Of a DNA stretch of 64,000 bases, positions 3,184 to 44,069 are shown in pieces. The notes under the pieces are model-generated. The model ran no database searches. It was not told the DNA's origin and worked only from the letters and a program-made list of their open reading frames with translations. The first letter of the stretch is position 1, and each line of letters opens with the position of its first letter. The translations under genes and the position numbers were made by a program. The stretch covers positions 13,459 through 77,458 of the forward strand of contig QZJU01000020.1 of assembly GCA_003597955.1 (NCBI GenBank), in the 5' to 3' direction. The stretch comes from Candidatus Parcubacteria bacterium (GTDB taxonomy: Bacteria; Patescibacteriota; Patescibacteriia; PEXW01).

Positions 3184-6100
3184 CTACCCTCGCCAACGGT
3201 CTTCACAAATCTCCCGAAAATCGCAGGCTGCGCAAGTGAATTTTGAGGGTGTGGCCGCAAAATCACTTTGTAAAATTTCTGAAATTGTCTCGGAAATTTC
3301 CGCTTTGGTTTTCTCAATGGCCTTTTTATCCACCTTATAGGAAAAAGGCTTCTCCGTAGCCAAGTAAATATAGGTGAGTTTTACCGGATTTAATTTCAAA
3401 GCCTCTCTGGCGGCAATGGCATAGATGTGTAATTGCTTCAGTTCCGCGTCTTTTTCTTCTTCCGGCGGCCTTTCCGAAGTTTTATAATCTATAATTTCAA
3501 TGCCGCCAGCCGTGGGATCAATCCGATCGATTTTACCTTTGATTTTTTGATTCCCGATGCTGATGGTGAATCCTTTTTCCAAATCCAGGGGTCTTGGCCA
3601 AGGCTTTGGTAAGTTTTCATAAAACCGTTTTAAATACTCGATCCCCCGCTTTTTGTAGTCGTTTTTCTGGCGGACATCCTCATACCAGGAGTCAATCCAG
3701 GCAGCCTGGTAAAGCTGCTGCAATTCCGCCCAGGTGACCAGAGGTTCGGAATTTTCGGTTTTTTTGCCAATCGGGTTGCCGAAAAGATCCTGCTGATTGG
3801 CATTGCTCCGCTCCCTGACTAATTTAAAGAAATTCAAAAGCGTAGTGTGGATGGTCTGCCCAAAACTAAATGTCGCCCTGCCTTGAACCGGAATTTTCAA
3901 AAGGTGCGCGTACTTGTACTGCTTGGGACATTTTTCAAATGCCTTTAACTGCGTGAAACTGAAATACGGCGGCAAGGCTTTCTTGAGTAAAGCTAGATTG
4001 TTTTCTTTTTGCAATGGCCCGGTTTCCAATTTTTTTAAAAAGCTGGATTTTAATTTATGAACTCTGGATTTTAAGTCGAGTTCGAGTATAAACCTGGACG
4101 GTTTTTTCTTCCGTGTTCCGCCATAATCTTCAGCGGCGGTGAAAAATATGCCCCGCTTCGCCCGGGTAATGCCCACATACAGCAACCGCCTTTCCTCCTG
4201 CAAATGCCAATCCCCTTCCGGCAATCTTTCTTTTACTAACTCGTCCGGCAATTCGATTGGCTCCCGTCTTTCAATGGTCGGGAACCTTTTGTCGACCAAA
4301 TTAACTATGAAGACATAAGCGAATTCCAAGCCTTTGGCTCCGTGGACAGTCATAATTTTCACGGCTTCCGGACCTTGTTCCCATTCGGGCGGGCGCAAAC
4401 TGCCGCTGTCACCGGCTTCCTGGGCAAAAGCCAACTCTCTTAAAAAATTGCCAACCGTCGGTTCAGCGTGGCGGATTTGAAAATTATGAAAAATCTGAAA
4501 AAGCTGGTTGACATAATTAACCTGTTCCAAATGCTCCGCATCGGTTTTTTTTATTACTTCCTTAAGCAAGCCCGAGTCTTCCAAAAACCTTAAAGTGACC
4601 TCCCCAACTGGGTGGATCCTGGCTAATTGCGTATGCCGGTCTAGCCAGCTCAACAACCTCTCAATCGCAATTACGGTTTCGGGCTTTAACCCGCTTAGGA
4701 CGCGGACATTTCGGAGTATTTCATAAAGCGACTTTGTCTCCCGCCGGGCAATAGACATCAAAGTCATGATATCCGGCAAGGAGATTTTTAAAAGCGGCAA
4801 GGTTAAGATCCGATAAAGGCTCGGGGTCTCGTGGTAATTATCCAGAAGTTTTAAATAATTCAAAATATCCAAAATAATCGGCTGGCGATACAAGCCGGCA
4901 GAAGCCAAAAATTGAAATGGGATTTTCAGGTTTTTTAATTTCTGAATGAAAGGCGCGGCATAGTCGTTGGCCCGGACCAAAATCGCAAAATCGTTGTAGG
5001 AAACCTTGCCCTTGCCGGCTTTTCTGACAGCTAGGATTTTCTCAATGACCGCCAAAACTTCCTGTTCCATCGCCGGCATAAGCCAATACTCGATTTCGCC
5101 ACTGGCTTTGGTTTGGGCGACTAATTTCTTGTTGATGACCGGTTTTTTTGAATTTGGCGCTTGGTTTTGGCCGTTAAGCTGAACCTCCAGTCGATTGGGA
5201 TTGTTGTTTTGTATGAATGTGTAGGCCAGATCCAGGATATTCTGGCAGCTTCGGTAATTTTCCGTCAAAACGACTTCCGTGGTTTCCGGAAAATCTTTTT
5301 TAAAGGCTAAAATGTTCGCCACGGACGCGCCTCGAAATTTATATATGCTTTGATCATCGTCGCCCACAACCGTCAAATTGTTGTTCGGCTTAGCCAAAAG
5401 TTTAACCAGTTCGTATTGGGCCCAGTTGGTGTCTTGAAATTCGTCGACTAAAATATATTCGAATTGCTGACGGAATTTATTTAGGATCTTTGGCCGGTTT
5501 TGGAAAAGATACAAAGTCTGGGTGATCAGATCGCCGAAGTCCAACGCGCCTTTTTCAAAAAGCAACTGCTGGTAGGTGTGATAGGCATTAGCGACCTCGT
5601 TAACGCGCTCGGCTTCAACTATCTGATCGGCTTCGGCTTCGGTTTTTCTTTTTCGACCATGAACTTCATCCAAATCCAATTTTAATTTTTCCGCGTACTG
5701 CAAATATTCTTCCGGCCGAATAGCCTCGTCTTTGCAGCGCGAGAAATGCTTGACCAGGCTGGCGACAAAGCGGGTCGGATTGCCTAAAGGCCGATAATAA
5801 TTCAGATCAAAACGCTCCAAATTCTCCCGCATTAAAATTGCTTGGTCGGTTTCATCCAATAGTTTAAAGTCTGGATTTAAGCCGATGTCTAAAGCATGAT
5901 CCCGCAAAATTCTTTCGCAAAAGGCATGAAATGTGGAAACCCACAAATCCACGTAGCCCATGGGTAGAAGCTTGTCCACCCGCTCTTCCATTTCGCCGGC
6001 GGCTTTGTCCGTAAAAGTTAAGGCCAAAATATGATCCGGTTGAACCTTTCGCTCGGCAATCAGCCAAGCGATGCGCTGAGTGATGACCGTGGTTTTGCCT

Positions 6101-6189
6101 GTACCGGCTCCGGCCACAATCAAGAGCGGCCCACTTTTATGGGTAATCGCCTGCTTTTGGGCAGGGTTTAGAGATGGCATAAGAGTCAT
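3184..6189 (-). CDS. UvrD/PcrA-family ATP-dependent helicase fused to a C-terminal RecB/Cas4-like PD-(D/E)XK nuclease with a Cys cluster
   Basis: Walker A (GAGTGKT) and UvrD motifs (DEFQDT, VGDDDQSIY) are present. The C-terminus shows IIDYKT...YIYL...CAACDFREIC, a nuclease with an Fe-S-like cysteine cluster. Confidence 0.88.
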   Translation of the reverse strand: MTLMPSLNPAQKQAITHKSGPLLIVAGAGTGKTTVITQRIAWLIAERKVQPDHILALTFTDKAAGEMEERVDKLLPMGYVDLWVSTFHAFCERILRDHALDIGLNPDFKLLDETDQAILMRENLERFDLNYYRPLGNPTRFVASLVKHFSRCKDEAIRPEEYLQYAEKLKLDLDEVHGRKRKTEAEADQIVEAERVNEVANAYHTYQQLLFEKGALDFGDLITQTLYLFQNRPKILNKFRQQFEYILVDEFQDTNWAQYELVKLLAKPNNNLTVVGDDDQSIYKFRGASVANILAFKKDFPETTEVVLTENYRSCQNILDLAYTFIQNNNPNRLEVQLNGQNQAPNSKKPVINKKLVAQTKASGEIEYWLMPAMEQEVLAVIEKILAVRKAGKGKVSYNDFAILVRANDYAAPFIQKLKNLKIPFQFLASAGLYRQPIILDILNYLKLLDNYHETPSLYRILTLPLLKISLPDIMTLMSIARRETKSLYEILRNVRVLSGLKPETVIAIERLLSWLDRHTQLARIHPVGEVTLRFLEDSGLLKEVIKKTDAEHLEQVNYVNQLFQIFHNFQIRHAEPTVGNFLRELAFAQEAGDSGSLRPPEWEQGPEAVKIMTVHGAKGLEFAYVFIVNLVDKRFPTIERREPIELPDELVKERLPEGDWHLQEERRLLYVGITRAKRGIFFTAAEDYGGTRKKKPSRFILELDLKSRVHKLKSSFLKKLETGPLQKENNLALLKKALPPYFSFTQLKAFEKCPKQYKYAHLLKIPVQGRATFSFGQTIHTTLLNFFKLVRERSNANQQDLFGNPIGKKTENSEPLVTWAELQQLYQAAWIDSWYEDVRQKNDYKKRGIEYLKRFYENLPKPWPRPLDLEKGFTISIGNQKIKGKIDRIDPTAGGIEIIDYKTSERPPEEEKDAELKQLHIYAIAAREALKLNPVKLTYIYLATEKPFSYKVDKKAIEKTKAEISETISEILQSDFAATPSKFTCAACDFREICEDRWRG

Positions 6190-10346: not shown

Positions 10347-10775
10347 TTAACTTAACTCTTCAAAGTCAATCAGATTTTCGCCCCCCTTTTCCTGAATTCT
10401 GGCAATTACTTTCTTTACGTCCAAATTTGGAAACTTTGCCTGAATTAATTCTTTGGCATAGGCCAAATCCCCAGCCTGTTTTTCGCCTTCGGCGGCTAAA
10501 CTATCAAAAGCTTTGTGGCCACCGTAAGCCCCACAATCCAGGTGGTGAATTAGCAGAACTTCCTTTATGCCGTGAAGGTTATGGGAAATATCGATCTGTT
10601 TTAAAATTATTTCCGAGCAGGCTTTATCCCCTTCCACCAGGCCTTTGGTAACGCCGGCGAGGCTGACCAAATCGTAATTATCTTTCAAACTATTGGATAC
10701 CAAAAAATCCCTTATGGCCGAATGGAAACGGAAATCAATGCAAGTAAAAACTATGGCTTGGCAGGAATGGGACAT
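10347..10775 (-). CDS. Hypothetical protein with a beta-carbonic-anhydrase-like Cys-x-Asp-x-Arg and His-x-x-Cys-Gly zinc-site pattern
   Basis: CIDFRF near the N-terminus and HHLDCGAYGG about 75 aa later. 142 aa. The assignment is tentative. Confidence 0.35.
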   Translation of the reverse strand: MSHSCQAIVFTCIDFRFHSAIRDFLVSNSLKDNYDLVSLAGVTKGLVEGDKACSEIILKQIDISHNLHGIKEVLLIHHLDCGAYGGHKAFDSLAAEGEKQAGDLAYAKELIQAKFPNLDVKKVIARIQEKGGENLIDFEELS

Positions 10776-25213: not shown

Positions 25214-25302
25214 GGTGCTTTTAGCTTACGATTTTTTGCTCAAAAACACAAGAAAAAAGCGGACCTTAATTGATCCGCTTTTAAAAACTAAAGAACGCTT
25301 TA

Positions 25303-25376
25303 TGCGGGCAGGTGGAATTGCACCACCGACGTTCGGGTTAATAATCCCCGACATTCTACTCCTGAGTTATACCCGC
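25303..25376 (-). pseudogene. tRNA-like element (possible degenerate tRNA)
   Basis: It has a 7-bp acceptor stem GCGGGTA/TGCCCGC, a perfect T-arm GGTGG-TGCAATT-CCACC, and U8, A14, G15 and G18. The D-stem cannot pair canonically and the anticodon stem has a mismatch. The putative anticodon would be UAU. Confidence 0.25.
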
Positions 25377-25606
25377 AATTTTTATAGCCCCGGGCTGGAT
25401 TTGTCCCGCCATAGAGGCGGGATGCCGCCGACTTTTGTTGACTTCAATAGATGGCGGCAAACCAGCAACCTTCGGTAAATTCCTGCACATGCCCATTAAT
25501 ACTGAGGCTCCCTGCCTGTCGCCAGGCAGGTACCGACTAAGCTACCGGGGTGACTTTTTTGCGAATTTTCACCTTAGCATACGCGCCGTTTTCAAGTCAA
25601 AAAACT

Positions 25607-33915: not shown

Positions 33916-34677
33916 TTAAGCCGTTCGAATGAAATTTACGAATTTTTCCGCGGGCAACGGTCTTTCCAAAATTTGATGAAGTTGGGCCTGGGTAATACGG
34001 GCGACAACGGTTTCCGTCGCCACATCAATCTCAAAACTTTCTAGTTCCTCCCAAGTTAAGCGGTTAAGAGCGTGGATAAAACTTCGGGCTTGGGTATTAA
34101 CAATCGGCGCTTGGGCGTCAAAAGCCTGGCATTCCAAGCCCAACCATCCGCCTAAAATCGCGGAAAACCTCACGCCGCTTTCGGTTAAGGCTTTCCGACA
34201 ATGCACGCAGGTGTCCAATTCCGGACCCAGACCCAGCAGCCGAAAAATTCGCCAAGCGAACCATAGTCGAAAACGCGCCAGATTGGTTTTTCTTGCTTGC
34301 AAAATTTCCAAGCGATCAATAACTTCCTGCAAAAAAGAAGCCAGCATAGGGTCGGGCGCTTCAGTCTTGGTGGCCGAATCGATTAAGTTTAAAACAAAAC
34401 CCAGGCTGGCTAATTTCTCCAAACTTTGCATGATGTCGTTTGGGTAATGCCGGCGCTCCACAGCCGTAAGGGTTTCGCCCATTTTGCCCCGCACCAAAGT
34501 CAGTTTAACGGTTGCGCCCGGTTCCATATGACCGCCCAATTTTGCTTTTGGCTTCTTAATGCCGCGGGCAAAAACTTCCAATTTCCCGCGTTCGTGCGTA
34601 AAGACGCTGTAGATCCGGCTGTCTTCCCGCACATCACGGCGATTTAATATCACGCCAGTGACTTCATGCAAACTCAT
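33916..34677 (-). CDS. recO: DNA repair protein RecO
   Basis: N-terminal OB fold and a C-terminal zinc finger (CVHCRK). Its start overlaps the stop of ileS. Confidence 0.78.
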   Translation of the reverse strand: MSLHEVTGVILNRRDVREDSRIYSVFTHERGKLEVFARGIKKPKAKLGGHMEPGATVKLTLVRGKMGETLTAVERRHYPNDIMQSLEKLASLGFVLNLIDSATKTEAPDPMLASFLQEVIDRLEILQARKTNLARFRLWFAWRIFRLLGLGPELDTCVHCRKALTESGVRFSAILGGWLGLECQAFDAQAPIVNTQARSFIHALNRLTWEELESFEIDVATETVVARITQAQLHQILERPLPAEKFVNFIRTA

Positions 34678-37600
34678 CTTTTCACGCCAATTAACACCCG
34701 CGCCTTACCAATGATTAGATCCTTTTTGAAATCCACTTCTTCCACTCTCCCCTTTTTTATACTGCGGCACCGAGTTAAATCACGCAGAACAGGCGCGTGC
34801 TCGGTGAAAACATGATTCAGGGTTTCGTCCGCCGTCTGCCATTCGATCTCAACCAAATCTTTTATGGTCAAGCCCGCGGCTTTTCGCAGGTCGTTCACCT
34901 GTCTGGCCATTTCCCGCACCAAACCTTTATGTCTCAATTCCTCGGTAATTTCCTTGGTTAAACCAACCTTCAAACCCGTATTGTCGGTTTCCTCGCTCCA
35001 TTGAACATCCGCACCCGCCTTGGCAATTTCCTGTTCACCCGATCTGACCGTTTCGACATTCAACTCTTCGGCAATAATTTTTTCGTATTCCAAGGATAGT
35101 TTGGTTGAGACCAATGCCATTAAGAGCGGTTGTCTAACTTTTATATCCAGTAATCGCCTGAGGGCATGGCCTTTTTCAACCGCTCTTCTGACCACGGCCA
35201 TCTCGCTTAAGGATTTTTCGTTGAAACTAAAATCAGTCGGCCAGGCAGCCAAATGCACGCTCATTTCAGCGCTGGTTTCTTTGATCTCTTGATAAATTTT
35301 CTCGGCCAAAAACGGCGCGAACGGCGCCAGCAAGACGCAGGTTTTTTGCAAAACTGACTTGAGCACCGAGGCGGTGATTGGATCAAAATTTTCGCCCGGC
35401 CGTAATTTTTCACGGCTGCGGCGCAAATACCAGGTGGAAAGCTCGGTTATAAAATTTTGAAGTTCGCGAACAGCGGAAGTCGGATCAAAGGCTTCCATTT
35501 TTGCCGTGACTGATTGGGTAGCTTGCGCCAGCCTGGCCAGAATCCACTTATCCATCAAGTTCTCCGGCTGCAAATCTCTGGCGGCCGGTTTAGCCTCGGC
35601 CACATAGGTCTGATAAAAAATGAAAATGTTCCAAAAAATCAATATGGTTTTTTTAACGGTTTCCTCCACGCCCTTCAGATCAAAAAGCTTAGGTTCGCCC
35701 GGCTGGCTCATGGCGAACAAATGCAAACGTAAGGCATCCGCGCCAAATTCGTCAATCACGGCTTTGGGTTCCACGACATTGCCCTTGGACTTGGACATTT
35801 TTTGGCCAGATTTATCTAAAATCAAACCCAGAGAAATGACATTCTTGAATGGCGCGCCCTTGCCTAAAAGCGTGGAAATTGCCAACAGGGTGTAAAACCA
35901 GCCTCGAGTTTGATCAATGCCTTCGGAAATGTAATCCGCTGGAAAATTTTTGTGCTTATCAATTCGGTCGGCATTTTCAAAAGGATAATGCCACTGGGCA
36001 AACGGCATAGCGCCGGAATCAAACCAAACATCCAGAACTTCAGGCACGCGACGCATCTCGCCTGAACATTTTTCGCAAGTCAATTTAATTTCGTCCACGA
36101 AAGGACGGTGCGGATCAAACTGAATCGGCACGGTTAACTCTTCAAATTCGCCTTTTTTTGGATATGGGGTTTCAAAATAGTTTTCTTCGGGCAAACCGGA
36201 ATACGACCATTTTAAAATCCAGAGAGGATCTCCGTGGGAAACGATCAAAATGCGTTTATTTGTAAAATTCCGGATTGCGTTTTGCACTGCCCTTTGCATT
36301 CGGGTTTTAACTTGATAATAATTCTCTCCGCCGCCCAAATTTAAATCCAGGGGTGGGTATTTGGTTTTAAGCTGCGATTCCAATTCCGCCTGCACCTCTT
36401 TCACCGGCCGGCCTTCGTAATCTGGTTCGTAAATTTCCCTTAAATCCCGATCATAAACGATCTTGGCGCCCGTAATTTGACTCACAATTTCCGCCGTTTC
36501 CCGGGTCCGCTGAAAGTCAGAGCTGATAATAATATCAATTTCCCCTTTTAATTTTTCGGCTGTTTCTTTGACATTTTTTTTCCCCTCCTTGGTTAAAATA
36601 TGTTTGTGATTATCCTCAATCCGGCTTTGGACGATGGAAGGAAAATTCTTGGTTGAAACGCCGTGCCGCATTATTAAAATCTGCGCTGACCGCTTTTCCG
36701 CTTTTGAACCCCTGGCTTCTTGCAGGTCCTTAAAACTTCCAACGACTTTGACGGCTTTGCATTTTTCACAAACCCAAATGGGCAAAGGCGTCCCCCAATA
36801 TCTTTCTCTGGAAATAGCCCAATCCTTTACCTCCTTCAGCCACTCGCCAAATCGACCGGTTTTTAAATATGCCGGCACCCAATTGATATTTTGATTATTC
36901 GCTAATAATTCCGAACGCAAACTTGACATCCGAATAAACCAGCTGTCTTTGGCATAATATAGCAAGGGCGTTTCGCAACGCCAGCAAAACGGGTATTCGT
37001 GGGTGTAATTTTCCAGTTTCAGCAAAAGCCCGCGATCCTGCAAATCTTGGATTATCCCCGCTTCCACATCCTTGGCTTTCACGAATTGGCCTGCCCATTT
37101 TTTCACGCTTGGTAAAAATCTTCCAGTTTGATCAACTGTATGTTGAGTTGGCAGGCCTGCGGTTTTGCCAAGCTGATAATCTTCTTCGCCGTACATAACC
37201 GCGGTGTGAACCACGCCCGTGCCGTCAGCCGTGGTGACAAAACCCGCAGGCAAAACCGTCCAAGCGGTTTGGGAATTTCCCCGGTTAACCGCCCCGGCAA
37301 ACAACGGCTCATAGCTTAAGCCGATTAAAGCTTTGCCCGAAATCTCGCCTAAAACCTTATAATCTTCCAAGATGCTCAAACGATCTTTGGCCAAAATATA
37401 ATATTCATCTGCTTTTTTAACGACGGCGTAGTTTATGTCTTCGCCTATTGCCAGCGCCACATTGCCCGGCAAGGTCCAGGGCGTGGTCGTCCAGGACAAA
37501 ACATATACCGGCTCATCGGTTTTAATAAACTTTTTCAAAGCTGAAGAACCCTCCAGTGAGGCTTTTTCTATTTTAAATTTCAAGTAGACCGAGGTTTCGG

Positions 37601-38267
37601 TCACGGTCTTGTAGCCCTGCGCAACCTCGTGGGAAGACAGCGCGGTCTCGCAACGCGGGCAGTGCTGAACGACTTTATGGCCTTGAAACAACAAAGGCTG
37701 GCCCTGACTGTCGACATTTTGCGAAATTTGTTTTATTATCCACCAAACGCTTTCAATATATTCGGGTGTGTAAGTAATGTAAGGGTTTTCCAAATCCAGC
37801 CAAAACCCGATCCGGCTGGTTATCTGCTCCCAATCCTGGCGGTAACGCATTACGCTGGTTTTGCATTCCGAATTGAATTTGATTATGCTGGCCTTTTTGT
37901 CGCCGGAAATCAAACTCTCAATCTCTTGTTTGCCGGAAATTTTTAAAGCTTTTTCAACCTGCAATTCTACGGGCAGGCCATGCGTGTCCCAGCCGGCCTT
38001 TCTTTCCACAAAAAAACCCTGCATGGTCTTAAAACGCACGATTGCGTCTTTATAAATTCGGGCGAGGACATGGTGGATGCCGGGCTGGCCATTGGCAGTG
38101 GGCGGGCCTTCAAAAAACACAAAAGGCTTTCCGGCTTTGGTCTGCTCAAGCGTTTTTTTAAAAACTCCGGCTTTATTCCAAAAATCCAAAATTTCCTCTT
38201 CCATTCTTGGAAAGGGATTTGGTAATGTTTCTTCTGATTTTAACTTCCTGGGTTTTTTGGCACGCAT
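34674..38267 (-). CDS. ileS: Isoleucyl-tRNA synthetase with an inserted histidine-phosphatase (PGM-like) domain
   Basis: HIGH region PPTANGQPGIHHVL, WDTHGLPVE, KMSKSKGN and an IleRS C-terminal domain. An extra insert of about 190 aa carries RHG...SSDFQRTRETA...IVSHGDP. It lies between PLPIWVCEKCKAVKVVGS and DPHRPFVDEIKLTCEKCSGEMRR. Confidence 0.9.
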   Translation of the reverse strand: MRAKKPRKLKSEETLPNPFPRMEEEILDFWNKAGVFKKTLEQTKAGKPFVFFEGPPTANGQPGIHHVLARIYKDAIVRFKTMQGFFVERKAGWDTHGLPVELQVEKALKISGKQEIESLISGDKKASIIKFNSECKTSVMRYRQDWEQITSRIGFWLDLENPYITYTPEYIESVWWIIKQISQNVDSQGQPLLFQGHKVVQHCPRCETALSSHEVAQGYKTVTETSVYLKFKIEKASLEGSSALKKFIKTDEPVYVLSWTTTPWTLPGNVALAIGEDINYAVVKKADEYYILAKDRLSILEDYKVLGEISGKALIGLSYEPLFAGAVNRGNSQTAWTVLPAGFVTTADGTGVVHTAVMYGEEDYQLGKTAGLPTQHTVDQTGRFLPSVKKWAGQFVKAKDVEAGIIQDLQDRGLLLKLENYTHEYPFCWRCETPLLYYAKDSWFIRMSSLRSELLANNQNINWVPAYLKTGRFGEWLKEVKDWAISRERYWGTPLPIWVCEKCKAVKVVGSFKDLQEARGSKAEKRSAQILIMRHGVSTKNFPSIVQSRIEDNHKHILTKEGKKNVKETAEKLKGEIDIIISSDFQRTRETAEIVSQITGAKIVYDRDLREIYEPDYEGRPVKEVQAELESQLKTKYPPLDLNLGGGENYYQVKTRMQRAVQNAIRNFTNKRILIVSHGDPLWILKWSYSGLPEENYFETPYPKKGEFEELTVPIQFDPHRPFVDEIKLTCEKCSGEMRRVPEVLDVWFDSGAMPFAQWHYPFENADRIDKHKNFPADYISEGIDQTRGWFYTLLAISTLLGKGAPFKNVISLGLILDKSGQKMSKSKGNVVEPKAVIDEFGADALRLHLFAMSQPGEPKLFDLKGVEETVKKTILIFWNIFIFYQTYVAEAKPAARDLQPENLMDKWILARLAQATQSVTAKMEAFDPTSAVRELQNFITELSTWYLRRSREKLRPGENFDPITASVLKSVLQKTCVLLAPFAPFLAEKIYQEIKETSAEMSVHLAAWPTDFSFNEKSLSEMAVVRRAVEKGHALRRLLDIKVRQPLLMALVSTKLSLEYEKIIAEELNVETVRSGEQEIAKAGADVQWSEETDNTGLKVGLTKEITEELRHKGLVREMARQVNDLRKAAGLTIKDLVEIEWQTADETLNHVFTEHAPVLRDLTRCRSIKKGRVEEVDFKKDLIIGKARVLIGVKR

Positions 38268-39644: not shown

Positions 39645-41270
39645 TCACATTTTTTCGGGTGCGGAAATTCCAAGGACATTCAGTATATCAGCTAAAACTT
39701 GTTTTGTCGCTTTAATCAATTTCAAGGGCAGTTCTTGCGTCTGATCCTCAGAAATTACCCGGACCAGAGTGTAAAATTCATGAAATGTCCGGGCCAGGCT
39801 CAAAGCATATTGCGGAATGCGATGCGCGCCGCAGTCCTGACTGACATCGGCCAAAACCTCCGGCCACTGGATCAATTTCAAAAGAAGTTTTCTTTCCGGG
39901 TCAACCAATTTCGACGATTGAATTTTCTGAATTTTCAAACCCTGCGCCTTTTTTAAAATGCTGCATATCCGAGCGTGGGCGTATTGCACATAGTAAACAG
40001 GGTTTTTCTCGTTCTGGGCTTTAGCCAGATCCAAATCAAAATCCAAGTGCGTGTCTGCGGCTCGCAAAAGAAAGAAAAACCTGGCCGCATCCAAGCCAAC
40101 TTCTTTGATGACTTCTTCGGCTTCCACATAAGTTCCGCGGCGTTTTGACATCTTTATTTCCTCGCCGGCTTTTAGCAGGCGGACAAATTGAATTAAAATC
40201 ACTTCTAAGCTGCCTTTGACCGCCAAGGACTTTAAAGCGGCCTGCAACCTGGCGACATAACCATGGTGATCGGCGCCTAATATGTTAATTGCCAAATTGG
40301 CTTTGTGTTTGGAAAATTTCAGCCAATGGTAAGCGATGTCCGGCAAGAAATATGTCATCTCCCCGTCGGCTTTAATCAGCACGCGGTCTTTGTCGTCCCC
40401 ATACCGTGTGGTGGCCAGCCAGGTTGCGCCGTCCTTTTCGTAAATCGCCTGCTGGGCTTTTAATTGAGCCAGGACTTGCGTGACAATTTTGGAATCTTCC
40501 ACCAAGGCTTTTTCCGAAAACCAATTGTCAAAATGAATTTGCATCACATTCTCAACTACTCTCTGGATTTCCTTCAACATTTTCGCCACAATTTTATCTT
40601 TTAGTTTGTCCCTAATTTCGGCAATTTTGTTGAGGTCAGAAAGCTTATAATTCGGCAAATGCAGCTTGCCGGCCAGCTCGTCAATATAAGCGCCCTGGTA
40701 GCATGTTTCGGGAAAATCAATGGTAATGCCTTGGCGTTGCCAATAGCGCCTTAAAACCGATTCGGCCAGAATCGCCACTTGGTTGCCGCGATCATTTACG
40801 TAATACTCGGAAAAAACCTTATAACCAGCGCTTTTAAAAACTCTGGCCAAAACATCACCCAAAAATCCGCCGCGGGCATTGGCCAAGGTCAAAGGCCCGG
40901 TCGGGTTGGCAGAAATGAATTCCAAATGGATTTTCTGCCCCTTACCGAAATCCGATTTTGCAAAATTTCTGGCCGAATGGCTTAATTGCTCAAGTTGTGC
41001 CAGCAGCCATTCGTCATTCAAAGTGAAATTCAAAAAACCCGGGCCAGCTAATCGGGCGCTGGCGATTATTTTGGATTGCGTTTGGGACAGGTGCGCAATC
41101 AGGCCCTCGGCGAGCTTTTTTGGATTTTGGTTGGTGGCTTTGGCTAACTTTAAAACTAAATTAGTGGAATAATCGCCAAAATTAAGATTTTCCGGTATTT
41201 CAACCTGGAAATCGATTTTGGCATCTTGGAATTTCTGCAGTAAAGCCCGAATTTCGTTTTTGACATTCAT
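39645..41270 (-). CDS. argS: Arginyl-tRNA synthetase
   Basis: EFISANPTGPLTLANARGG and a C-terminal YVQYAHARICSIL (DALR domain). Confidence 0.9.
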   Translation of the reverse strand: MNVKNEIRALLQKFQDAKIDFQVEIPENLNFGDYSTNLVLKLAKATNQNPKKLAEGLIAHLSQTQSKIIASARLAGPGFLNFTLNDEWLLAQLEQLSHSARNFAKSDFGKGQKIHLEFISANPTGPLTLANARGGFLGDVLARVFKSAGYKVFSEYYVNDRGNQVAILAESVLRRYWQRQGITIDFPETCYQGAYIDELAGKLHLPNYKLSDLNKIAEIRDKLKDKIVAKMLKEIQRVVENVMQIHFDNWFSEKALVEDSKIVTQVLAQLKAQQAIYEKDGATWLATTRYGDDKDRVLIKADGEMTYFLPDIAYHWLKFSKHKANLAINILGADHHGYVARLQAALKSLAVKGSLEVILIQFVRLLKAGEEIKMSKRRGTYVEAEEVIKEVGLDAARFFFLLRAADTHLDFDLDLAKAQNEKNPVYYVQYAHARICSILKKAQGLKIQKIQSSKLVDPERKLLLKLIQWPEVLADVSQDCGAHRIPQYALSLARTFHEFYTLVRVISEDQTQELPLKLIKATKQVLADILNVLGISAPEKM

Positions 41271-43095: not shown

Positions 43096-43548
43096 ATGCC
43101 GCAATTGACCAAAAACCGCAAAGCCAATTTTAATTACGATGTCCTGGAAAAGTACGAAGCCGGCATTGTTTTAACCGGACCTGAAGTCAAATCGGTAAAA
43201 GCCGGAAATTTAAGCCTCCAAGGCGCTTATGTTAGTTTGCGGGAAAATTCCTTGTGGCTGGTGCACGCCTTTATCGCGCCTTACAAGCCTGCTAGGACTT
43301 TTCAAACCAATTACAATCCCGAAAGGGAAAGAAGGCTTCTGCTAACGAAAAATGAAATTTCCGGACTGGTCGGCAAAATGCACAGCGCCGGGTTGACTTT
43401 AATCCCTCTAAGCTTCTATACTCAGCGGGGTTTGGTGAAAGTTGCTTTAGGCTTAGCCCGGGGCAAAAAAGCCCACGATAAAAGAGCCAGCATTAAAAAA
43501 CGCGAAATTGCCCGGGATATTGGGAGAGCCTTAAGAAATAAGATTTAG
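43096..43548 (+). CDS. smpB: SsrA-binding protein SmpB
   Basis: GIVLTGPEVKS and a C-terminal basic tail. 150 aa. Confidence 0.9.
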   Translation: MPQLTKNRKANFNYDVLEKYEAGIVLTGPEVKSVKAGNLSLQGAYVSLRENSLWLVHAFIAPYKPARTFQTNYNPERERRLLLTKNEISGLVGKMHSAGLTLIPLSFYTQRGLVKVALGLARGKKAHDKRASIKKREIARDIGRALRNKI

Positions 43549-43662: not shown

Positions 43663-44069
43663 GGGGATGTTCATAAGTTGATAGTTTGCTTTGACAATTA
43701 GCCTGCGGACCGCCTTTTTCGGGAATGGCGTAAAACTTTCTGAAAATTAGACAAATGCCAATTCATTTGTCAGCAAAGTGAAGACTGCATTGGCCAAAAC
43801 CTTTGCCGTCCCAGCTTTCGCTCCGGTTGTTGCTTAAAAACCAATAACCCATTCGCCCCGCAGCCTGATGCGGGATTCGCGAGTGTTAAATTTCAGGCTG
43901 GATATTTTTCACCGCGCGCTGAAAAATATTGAGAAACTTGCGCGCTTTGGCGTTTTGCGATCTTGGTTGTTCCCTGCGCAAAATGTCGAAAACCCTTGAA
44001 CAACCTATGTCCGAAGAAAGTTAATTGCCGGTAAACTAGACAGGGGTGCAAGACCCCTCATCTCCACCA
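43663..44069 (+). ncRNA. ssrA: tmRNA (ssrA)
   Basis: The 5' GGGGATG pairs with the 3' CATCTCC-A-CCA, giving a 7-bp acceptor stem with a G3·U70 wobble (the alanine identity element). A T-arm AGGGG-TGCAAGA-CCCCT directly precedes it. A D-analog UUCAUAAGUUGAUA follows the 5' strand. It sits immediately downstream of smpB. A candidate tag ORF ends ...FAPVVA-TAA. Confidence 0.72.

Follow-up and report, generated by a model that had tools for sequence, protein, structure and literature searches.

A histidine phosphatase nested in the CP3 zinc hairpin of type 2 isoleucyl-tRNA synthetases from Patescibacteria

A stretch of 64,000 nucleotides from a Candidatus Parcubacteria contig (QZJU01000020.1; the window, hereafter) encodes an isoleucyl-tRNA synthetase (IleRS) that carries within it a complete and, to judge from its residues and modelled fold, apparently active histidine phosphatase. 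The gene, ileS, lies at 34674–38267 on the minus strand and specifies 1,197 amino acids (aa) and a stop codon, as read from its open reading frame, Pfam, the TIGR00392 model and an AlphaFold2 (AF2) prediction. The phosphatase with its linkers occupies aa 516–717 (202 aa; 36117–36722, minus strand, as are all other features of the gene), delimited by alignment, Pfam and AF2. It is present in 78 of the 121 closest IleRS, where it measures 181–213 aa, and absent from 43, and the module is accessory and exchangeable. On balance we favour a phosphatase that is functionally coupled to isoleucine charging, a reading weighed below against its alternatives.

Position, catalytic residues and fold of the nested domain

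The original prediction, made from the letters of the DNA alone, had placed at 34674–38267 a 1,197-aa IleRS about 200 residues longer than usual, with a complete histidine-phosphatase domain between the halves of its zinc knuckle. The open reading frame, Pfam and the TIGR00392 equivalog bore out the gene, and its insert-free relatives measure 955–1,030 aa. Alignment with other IleRS confined the extra segment to aa 516–717, between VGSFKDL and DPHRPF, where insert-free relatives have 5–22 residues, and set the insertion point between residues 481 and 484 of Thermus thermophilus IleRS and between 476 and 486 of PmIleRS2. The sole Pfam domain in the inserted segment is His_Phos_1 (PF00300), which matches aa 530–701 (36165–36680) over profile positions 1–170 of 194 with 106.2 bits against a gathering threshold of 21.7 (E = 2.2e-30). 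Chance can be dismissed on the strength of a domain match at E = 2e-30 together with the same architecture in more than 100 independent protein clusters. The presence of a complete domain was further upheld by its conserved catalytic residues, its predicted fold and its recurrence in relatives. Against PHROG the insert gave one match, of unknown function.

Three catalytic elements had been named at the outset and all are there: the RHG motif (R534, the nucleophile H535 and G536; 36660–36668), the second catalytic arginine R587 in SSDFQRTRETA (36507–36509) and the second catalytic histidine H678 in VSHGD (36234–36236). To these we add the phosphate-pocket asparagine N541 (36645–36647) and the general acid E648 in GGEN (36324–36326). 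Among the 78 insert-bearing relatives, the arginine and histidine of RHG, R587 and H678 are each conserved in all 78, E648 in 77 and N541 in 69; the RHG arginine and histidine also recur in all 19 further nested copies described below. Mean identity among these inserts is only about 35%, and catalytic residues that are near-invariant at such divergence point to selection for catalysis. We infer from this pattern of residues that the domain is catalytically competent and hydrolyses a phosphomonoester.

Modelled alone with AF2, the insert folds confidently in the alpha/beta/alpha manner of its superfamily, with a predicted local distance difference test score (pLDDT) of 89.7 overall and 92–99 in the core, and it forms an alpha/beta domain in the model of the full-length protein. 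A Foldseek search with the insert model returned the compact phosphatases GpgP, PhoE, PspA and CobC at template-modelling (TM) scores of 0.71–0.78 and a probability of 1.00, whereas cofactor-dependent phosphoglycerate mutases (dPGM) superposed less well (TM 0.57–0.63, target-normalised). By sequence, too, the closest solved relatives are PhoE (E = 4e-9) and PspA, and the dPGM equivalog models fall far under their cutoffs (dPGM_arch, 65.7 against 225; GpmB, 61.9 against 261). These low scores and a fold nearest to compact phosphatases indicate a histidine phosphatase of the phosphatase kind and not a mutase, and a true dPGM is ruled out by the same sub-cutoff scores and poorer structural alignment. 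The earlier assignment to the phosphoglycerate-mutase family accordingly holds at the level of the superfamily and fails if taken to mean a mutase.

The compact branch-1 enzymes to which the insert is closest, PhoE (1EBB/1H2E), GpgP Rv2419c (4PZ9/4QIH), PspA (4IJ5) and CobC (6E4B), share its fold, its length of about 200 aa and its full catalytic set. They are free-standing enzymes with known small-molecule substrates (Rv2419c is the mycobacterial glucosyl-3-phosphoglycerate phosphatase, PspA a phosphoserine phosphatase and CobC the alpha-ribazole phosphatase), whereas the window domain is nested and only 20–25% identical to them. A histidine phosphatase joined to a nucleic-acid enzyme has a parallel in the bifunctional RNase H / acid phosphatase (PRK07238, Rv2228c type), which is also the best NCBIfam match of phosphatase type at 72 bits; that protein, however, is an end-to-end fusion with another partner, and the score is far under the cutoff of 326.

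The insertion site is the hairpin tip of the second Zn(Cys)4 site, in the peripheral and variable CP3 subdomain. Its two cysteine pairs flank the phosphatase as knuckle halves C500-E-K-C503 (36759–36770) and C731-E-K-C734 (36066–36077), the former being the equivalent of the CxxC of T. thermophilus IleRS CP3; the topology of CP3 differs among IleRS types, and the T. thermophilus version contains a zinc motif (PMC7191050). The original prediction had described the domain as inserted in the catalytic core, which is correct along the sequence and incorrect in the structure, where the tip is peripheral. All four CP3 cysteines are kept in 92% of insert-bearing and 72% of insert-free proteins, a difference suggestive of a stapling role and too weak to lean on. 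The knuckle halves also form a 12-nt direct repeat, identical at 11 of 12 positions, on either side of the insert (36067–36078 and 36760–36771); the shared peptide motif, rather than a scar left by recombination, most likely accounts for it.

To judge by sequence and model, the remainder of the protein is a complete type 2 IleRS. The N-terminal part (aa 1–515; 36723–38267) comprises the first half of the Rossmann fold, the CP core, the CP1 editing domain, CP2 and the first half of CP3, and the C-terminal part (aa 718–1197; 34677–36116) the rest of CP3, the second Rossmann half, the KMSKS motif (aa 823–827; 35787–35801), the SC-fold, the anticodon-binding domain and the DUF5915 C-terminal domains. 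In Pfam the tRNA-synt_1 match is split in two with His_Phos_1 between the halves, and Anticodon_1 and DUF5915 (the latter at aa 1096–1178) follow downstream. The ileS equivalog TIGR00392 scores 869.4 bits against a cutoff of 621.4, the insertion notwithstanding, and the next-best NCBIfam models are those of the mupirocin-resistant type 2 enzymes MupA (749 bits) and MupB (741 bits). The zinc site of the CP core is formed by C203/C206/C428/C431, and the CP1 editing motifs are intact and kept across relatives (WTTTPWTLPGN at aa 259–269; the GTG..H...D motif GTGVVHTAVMYGEEDY at aa 349–364).

Structural comparison led to the same family. The full-length AF2 model has a mean pLDDT of 91.2 and a predicted TM score of 0.84, and its best matches are the IleRS2 structures 8C8W and 8C8V and 1ILE; in both sequence and fold searches the type 1 enzymes 1FFY and 8C9E come far behind 1ILE and 8C8U–W. 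The organisation is that of type 2, with an ARD/DUF5915 C terminus, no treble-clef zinc-binding domain and IleRS2 as the nearest structures. Likeness to the solved type 2 enzymes (1ILE from T. thermophilus; 8C8U, 8C8V and 8C8W from Priestia megaterium) extends over the entire backbone at 33–37% identity and target-normalised TM scores of 0.82–0.92 (37% and 0.92 for 1ILE; TM 0.82–0.83 for 8C8U–W), but these enzymes have only 2–10 residues where the window protein holds its 202-aa phosphatase. Common to the window protein and IleRS2 is the non-canonical G/AXHH form of the class I HIGH signature, here GIHH (aa 63–66; 38070–38081), which virtually all of the 121 close relatives share, whether they carry an insert or not (GIHH, AIHH, GLHH, ALHH or GVHH). 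This variant is functional in IleRS2 and confers mupirocin hyper-resistance (PMC10485003).

Modules inserted in loops of the catalytic body or of the anticodon part are a feature of class Ia synthetases, and some have been gained or lost in evolution (PMC13114784; bioRxiv 10.64898/2026.02.03.703510). The nested phosphatase resembles the CP1 editing domain, the leucine-specific domain of leucyl-tRNA synthetase (LeuRS) and the INS of IleRS2 in being a loop-inserted domain. It differs from them in that they act on aminoacylation or tRNA binding and do not come from an unrelated, widespread superfamily with its own active site.

Distribution, exchange and repeated nesting of the module

When aa 490–745 were run in phmmer against all 1.84 billion cluster representatives, 50 matches reached E ≤ 1e-30 and 463 reached E ≤ 1e-10. 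Of the 150 best-scoring ones (50%-identity clusters), about 110 match flank, insert and flank without a break, and about 20 more are one-flank fragments. The names given to insert carriers by their sources include Komeilibacteria, Uhrbacteria, Doudnabacteria, Yanofskybacteria, Pacebacteria, Jorgensenbacteria and Parcubacteria, and among GTDB representatives the nested domain occurs in, for instance, Giovannonibacteria, Paceibacterota and Gracilibacteria. A few carriers are labelled Acidobacteriaceae, Verrucomicrobiae, Binatia or Baltobacteraceae and may be mis-binned contigs of the candidate phyla radiation (CPR). Another protein, P0274, is a 1,561-aa IleRS that has other insertions without assignment besides the phosphatase at the CP3 site; it is known from 13 assemblies, on contigs of up to 2.1 Mb, which exceed typical CPR genomes, so the architecture may reach beyond Patescibacteria.

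In NCBI annotation the proteins with an insert go under the name 'class I tRNA ligase family protein' (P0004, P0027 and P0036, for example) and those without one under 'isoleucine--tRNA ligase' (P0006, P0015); the insertion apparently pushes an essential gene under NCBI's specific naming rule, leading its pipeline to downgrade ileS to the generic family name. Literature searches on IleRS with histidine phosphatase, aminoacyl-tRNA synthetases with phosphoglycerate mutase in Patescibacteria, CPR IleRS and nested histidine phosphatases did not find the architecture; one for GNAT-bearing IleRS found nothing relevant, and specialised papers on IleRS evolution and domain insertion (PMC13114784, PMC10485003 and bioRxiv 10.64898/2026.02.03.703510) make no mention of it. 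As far as we found, the architecture appears to be present in public databases yet undescribed; nested accessory domains in synthetases are known as such.

Presence and absence of the insert are interleaved on a neighbour-joining tree of the backbone (884 columns), at a cost of at least 15 parsimony changes. Backbones can be 89–93% identical and yet differ in the whole domain, with clean junctions (P0003/P0014, P0004/P0015 and P0007/P0013). Syntenic orthologs with backbones 77–93% identical lack the module, and the closest insert-free relative of the window protein, P0006, has a backbone 77% identical to it and stands in the same argS–GT4–ileS–recO context. The insert-bearing loci L001, L004 and L005 and the window share one neighbourhood, ileS–recO–CLIPPER-like–...–ClpB, with the insert-free loci L003 and L052. 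Homogenisation of two paralogous ileS genes by gene conversion is ruled out by this syntenic placement of bearing and insert-free alleles and by the window, in which no second copy of ileS or of the phosphatase was found.

The domain is also exchanged. P0005 and P0009 have backbones 95% identical and inserts only 38% identical in amino acids, and their contigs, L005 and L004, are 92–94% identical in DNA save for about 600 bp without detectable similarity, which are the insert; the difference between these two is a cassette swap. In every locus examined, GC content at third codon positions (GC3) is lower in the insert than elsewhere in the gene, and the strong deviation in L005 (0.51 in the insert against 0.65 in the backbone) is consistent with import. 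A search for flanking direct or inverted repeats gave only chance matches and the two CEKC-coding knuckle halves, and no target-site repeats.

CP3 is one of at least four nesting sites used in other lineages, which in the backbone coordinates of P0006 lie at about 515 (the CP3 site of the window), 550, 575–590 and 705–715. The site at 575–590 follows WFDSG, and that at 705–715 follows KMSKS, right before the anticodon-binding domain. A gracilibacterial IleRS (L008; 1352–5014) carries the domain at 705–715 and has a free-standing copy 0.9 kb downstream. Three proteins (P0240, P0226 and P0242) hold domains at two sites simultaneously, a form found in six assemblies on contigs of up to 1 Mb, and P0249 has an array of up to four. 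Between two and four His_Phos domains per IleRS were seen in P0226, P0242, P0240, P0207, P0248 and P0249. The catalytic set is retained in all 19 complete extra nested copies save for a single E-to-Q change, and copies inside one protein are only 22–51% identical to each other. Repeated in-frame nesting at different loops is unlike a simple read-through fusion of neighbours, which argues that tethering to IleRS itself is selected.

In some proteins the phosphatase shares its host with an acetyltransferase. P0237 has a GNAT domain at aa 606–690 and His_Phos at aa 723–891, and P0269 (1,859 aa) a GNAT at aa 557–669 and His_Phos at aa 1027–1211, with about 350 aa between them that have no Pfam assignment. 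The NCBIfam family NF040702 (ileS_w_GNAT, N-acetyltransferase domain-containing isoleucine--tRNA ligase) provides a precedent for an IleRS with an extra enzymatic domain, and the likeness extends to P0237 and P0269, where the GNAT is nested beside His_Phos in the same region of IleRS. The window protein, by contrast, has no GNAT in Pfam and scores 321 bits against that family's cutoff of 1999; its cargo is an enzyme of another family.

Homologs of the insert also exist as separate genes, with 29–41% identity to it. In all six CPR contigs inspected that have such a gene, it occupies, on the same strand, the interval from argS to a type 2 ileS that has no insert. The order in L017 is argS–phosphatase–ileS with a 4-nt overlap and an 18-bp gap, and in L051 argS–phosphatase–ileS–recO with gaps of 1–11 bp; in L044, L046, L048 and L049 a few variable genes intervene in the interval from argS through the phosphatase to ileS. 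A homolog in a metagenome-assembled genome labelled Spirochaetes stands in an unrelated gene context and not between argS and ileS. On a neighbour-joining tree of these short and very divergent sequences, free-standing clades are interspersed among nested ones.

Three further features of these loci were observed. A conserved peptide of 51–63 aa with a predicted single membrane pass (K[RK]G[KE]DEQ..FA.K.V......I.A..D) is encoded directly upstream of the free-standing phosphatase in four of them (L044, 4790–4960; L046, 4841–4996; L048, 4650–4841; L049, 5791–5976), whereas the window and loci L001, L003–L006, L008, L017, L051 and L052 gave no tblastn match to it. In the Moranbacteria locus L044 a NUDIX hydrolase gene (5630–6121) comes directly after the phosphatase, and a gene for a P-loop kinase of Zeta-toxin/AAA_33 type (10415–10612) overlaps the ileS stop codon by 4 nt.

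What the tethered phosphatase may do

The mechanism that we favour has a compact histidine phosphatase of about 195 aa grafted on the Zn(Cys)4-stapled CP3 hairpin tip of what would be a functional type 2 IleRS. Following the established chemistry of the His_Phos superfamily, H535 would attack a phosphomonoester to give a phospho-histidine intermediate, with the phosphate held by R534, R587, N541 and H678 and the leaving group protonated by E648, and the module would leave the chemistry of aminoacylation unchanged. The tethered enzyme would clear a phosphorylated ligand met at the IleRS–tRNA complex. Selection would repeatedly join the module to IleRS in Patescibacteria, physically or by operon, either as a gene of its own in the argS–ileS interval or as one to four domains set into IleRS, for which at least four surface loops have served; among close relatives it would be lost, or swapped by homologous recombination. 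That the phosphatase is functionally coupled to isoleucine charging in this way, and is not a mere passenger, we hold to be somewhat better than an even bet.

Its substrate can be named with less assurance. The leading candidate is a phosphate-blocked tRNA acceptor end (a 3′- or 2′-phosphate, or a pyrophosphate), an assignment that we put forward tentatively and rate as unlikely; a phosphorylated nucleotide or amino-acid antimetabolite is the second candidate and phosphorylated IleRS the third. The roles floated in the original prediction, namely editing-related chemistry, (p)ppGpp or Ap4A metabolism and moonlighting, are conceivable and were neither favoured nor contradicted by the present findings. 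Behind the first stands an analogy with the Escherichia coli CCA-adding enzyme, whose HD domain, Yakunin and colleagues are said to have found in 2004, has phosphatase and 2′,3′-cyclic phosphodiesterase activity. That enzyme too works at the tRNA 3′ end with a phosphoesterase able to unblock ends, but its domain has the HD fold, is not nested and belongs to another host enzyme, and the parallel is only a lead. More doubtful still is the idea that the module is an on-enzyme repair or counter-attack device near the path of the acceptor end, where it would remove phosphate or pyrophosphate from the 3′ ends of tRNAs that are damaged or modified by toxins, or from phospho-synthetase, and so let charging go on. 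Were this so, and we are equally doubtful here, the swaps, divergent arrays and co-nested GNATs would be the footprint of an arms race between episymbionts and toxins or antibiotics directed against isoleucine charging.

Several observations weigh against coupling to isoleucine charging, or against particular versions of it. The order argS–ileS–recO is common to CPR in general, and many CPR loci lack a phosphatase both inside ileS and next to it, so the position of the free-standing gene may be inherited and not selected; moreover, the six free-standing cases are phylogenetically non-independent. At the locus of P0006 there is no phosphatase gene within 10 kb of ileS, from which it follows that the module is not required for IleRS function as such. 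The nearest relatives in both sequence and structure are small-molecule phosphatases, which favours a metabolite substrate over tRNA or protein, and a repair activity limited to tRNA-Ile is hard to rationalise. Finally, a PADLOC-DB scan of the insert returned no defence family at E ≤ 0.01.

Much of this would be accommodated if the domain were a passenger, that is, an ordinary metabolic phosphatase like PhoE, PspA or GpgP that is mechanistically unrelated to aminoacylation. Its gene would have stood in the ancestral CPR argS–ileS interval and moved by local rearrangement into permissive loops of IleRS, where fusion ensures co-expression in a streamlined genome. We regard this account and its route as distinctly possible and still on the unlikely side. 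It draws on the small-molecule character of all the closest solved relatives, on the peripheral, structurally variable nature of CP3 (PMC7191050), on the tolerance of the CP3 region for GNAT domains and unassigned inserts as well, and on the generality of argS–ileS synteny combined with the dispensability of the module in close relatives. Nesting, however, requires two in-frame non-homologous junctions, and domains nested at four or more loops, up to four times per protein and with their catalytic residues intact, are hard to explain without selection for tethering. The low identity of copies within one protein suggests diversified specificities and not dosage, and a cassette swap at 92–94% DNA identity is unusual for a housekeeping metabolic enzyme.

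A sub-case of functional coupling is an immunity module that reverses a phosphorylation-type attack on isoleucine charging, whether by a HipA-like kinase acting on the synthetase, by toxSAS-type pyrophosphorylation of the CCA end or by a phosphorylated antimetabolite, with the variability of the module reflecting an arms race. Polymorphism for presence and absence on near-identical backbones, the cassette swap and the arrays of divergent, intact copies are in keeping with it, as is the co-nesting of a GNAT in some lineages, GNATs being a classic detoxifying or toxin family. The GXHH mupirocin hyper-resistance motif of the backbone points to selection on IleRS by inhibitors, and in L044 the Zeta-toxin/AAA_33-like kinase that overlaps the ileS stop codon and the NUDIX gene beside the phosphatase likewise speak for such a module. 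Yet with no PADLOC match, no toxin partner consistently linked to the locus and a high rate of recombination in CPR that alone could yield the swaps, we consider such a module improbable. To our knowledge, moreover, HipA-like and toxSAS toxins are known for other synthetases or for tRNAs generally and not for IleRS.

Far less probable is a pseudo-enzyme acting purely as a scaffold, which might offer tRNA a further surface to bind or regulate the KMSKS loop. Idiosyncratic insertions of class Ia enzymes do serve tRNA binding or regulation, as in the leucine-specific domain of LeuRS and the INS of IleRS2 (bioRxiv 10.64898/2026.02.03.703510), but pseudo-enzymes normally lose their catalytic residues, and here R534, H535, R587 and H678 are invariant and E648 near-invariant across 78 proteins, with the same true of the additional nested copies. 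The last alternative, a selfish mobile insertion (intein-like or homing) or an artefact of assembly or gene calling, would suit the patchy distribution, the clean junctions and the lowered GC3 of the insert, but we give it almost no credence and regard an intein, a homing element or an assembly chimera as effectively refuted: the insert starts with QEARG and ends with PIQF followed by D, and so has no intein splice-junction residues; it contains PF00300 only, with no Hint or endonuclease domain; it has no flanking target-site repeats and no second copy in the window; its reading frame is unbroken; and the architecture recurs across many independent assemblies and upwards of 100 clusters.

Genomic surroundings and significance

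In the window ileS is followed by recO (253 aa; 33916–34677, minus strand), which overlaps its stop codon by 4 nt, and preceded by argS (541 aa; 39645–41270, minus strand), the upstream member of the conserved CPR argS ... ileS–recO synteny. More broadly, the order IF3–L35–L20 / SmpB / argS / ileS / recO / CLIPPER-like / ClpB is kept across the CPR contigs examined. A tmRNA gene (43663–44069, plus strand; Rfam, 81.8 bits) is preceded by a 150-aa open reading frame (43096–43548, plus strand) that may be an SmpB candidate, by synteny with L044, L048, L049 and L052, where SmpB adjoins argS. ARAGORN found a tRNA-Ile with anticodon UAU at 25302–25377 on the minus strand (the Rfam tRNA score is only 38.9 bits). 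In most bacteria AUA is decoded by a lysidine-modified CAU tRNA, and the UAU tRNA suggests a TilS-independent AUA decoding system read by the type 2 IleRS of the window, with no link to the insert shown.

Aminoacyl-tRNA synthetases are among the most conserved enzymes, and time and again their idiosyncratic insertions have proved to bring in new functions, among them editing, signalling and discrimination between tRNAs. In the present case IleRS has many times received an intact enzyme from a different superfamily, sometimes beside an acetyltransferase, and where that enzyme is unfused its gene is kept just upstream of ileS. By a Rosetta-stone argument, a phosphatase reaction would thereby be linked to isoleucine charging in Patescibacteria, a group that makes up a large share of bacterial diversity, whose biochemistry is almost wholly untried and of which the host of the window is an ultra-small CPR member. 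The CP3 hairpin tip, for its part, is a naturally permissive site for the insertion of a whole domain in a class I synthetase. If the phosphatase is a passenger, it would still illustrate clearly how neighbouring genes give rise to nested multidomain proteins; if it repairs or counters attacks on tRNA ends or on the synthetase, it would constitute a layer of immunity built into an aminoacyl-tRNA synthetase, which is undescribed for any synthetase.

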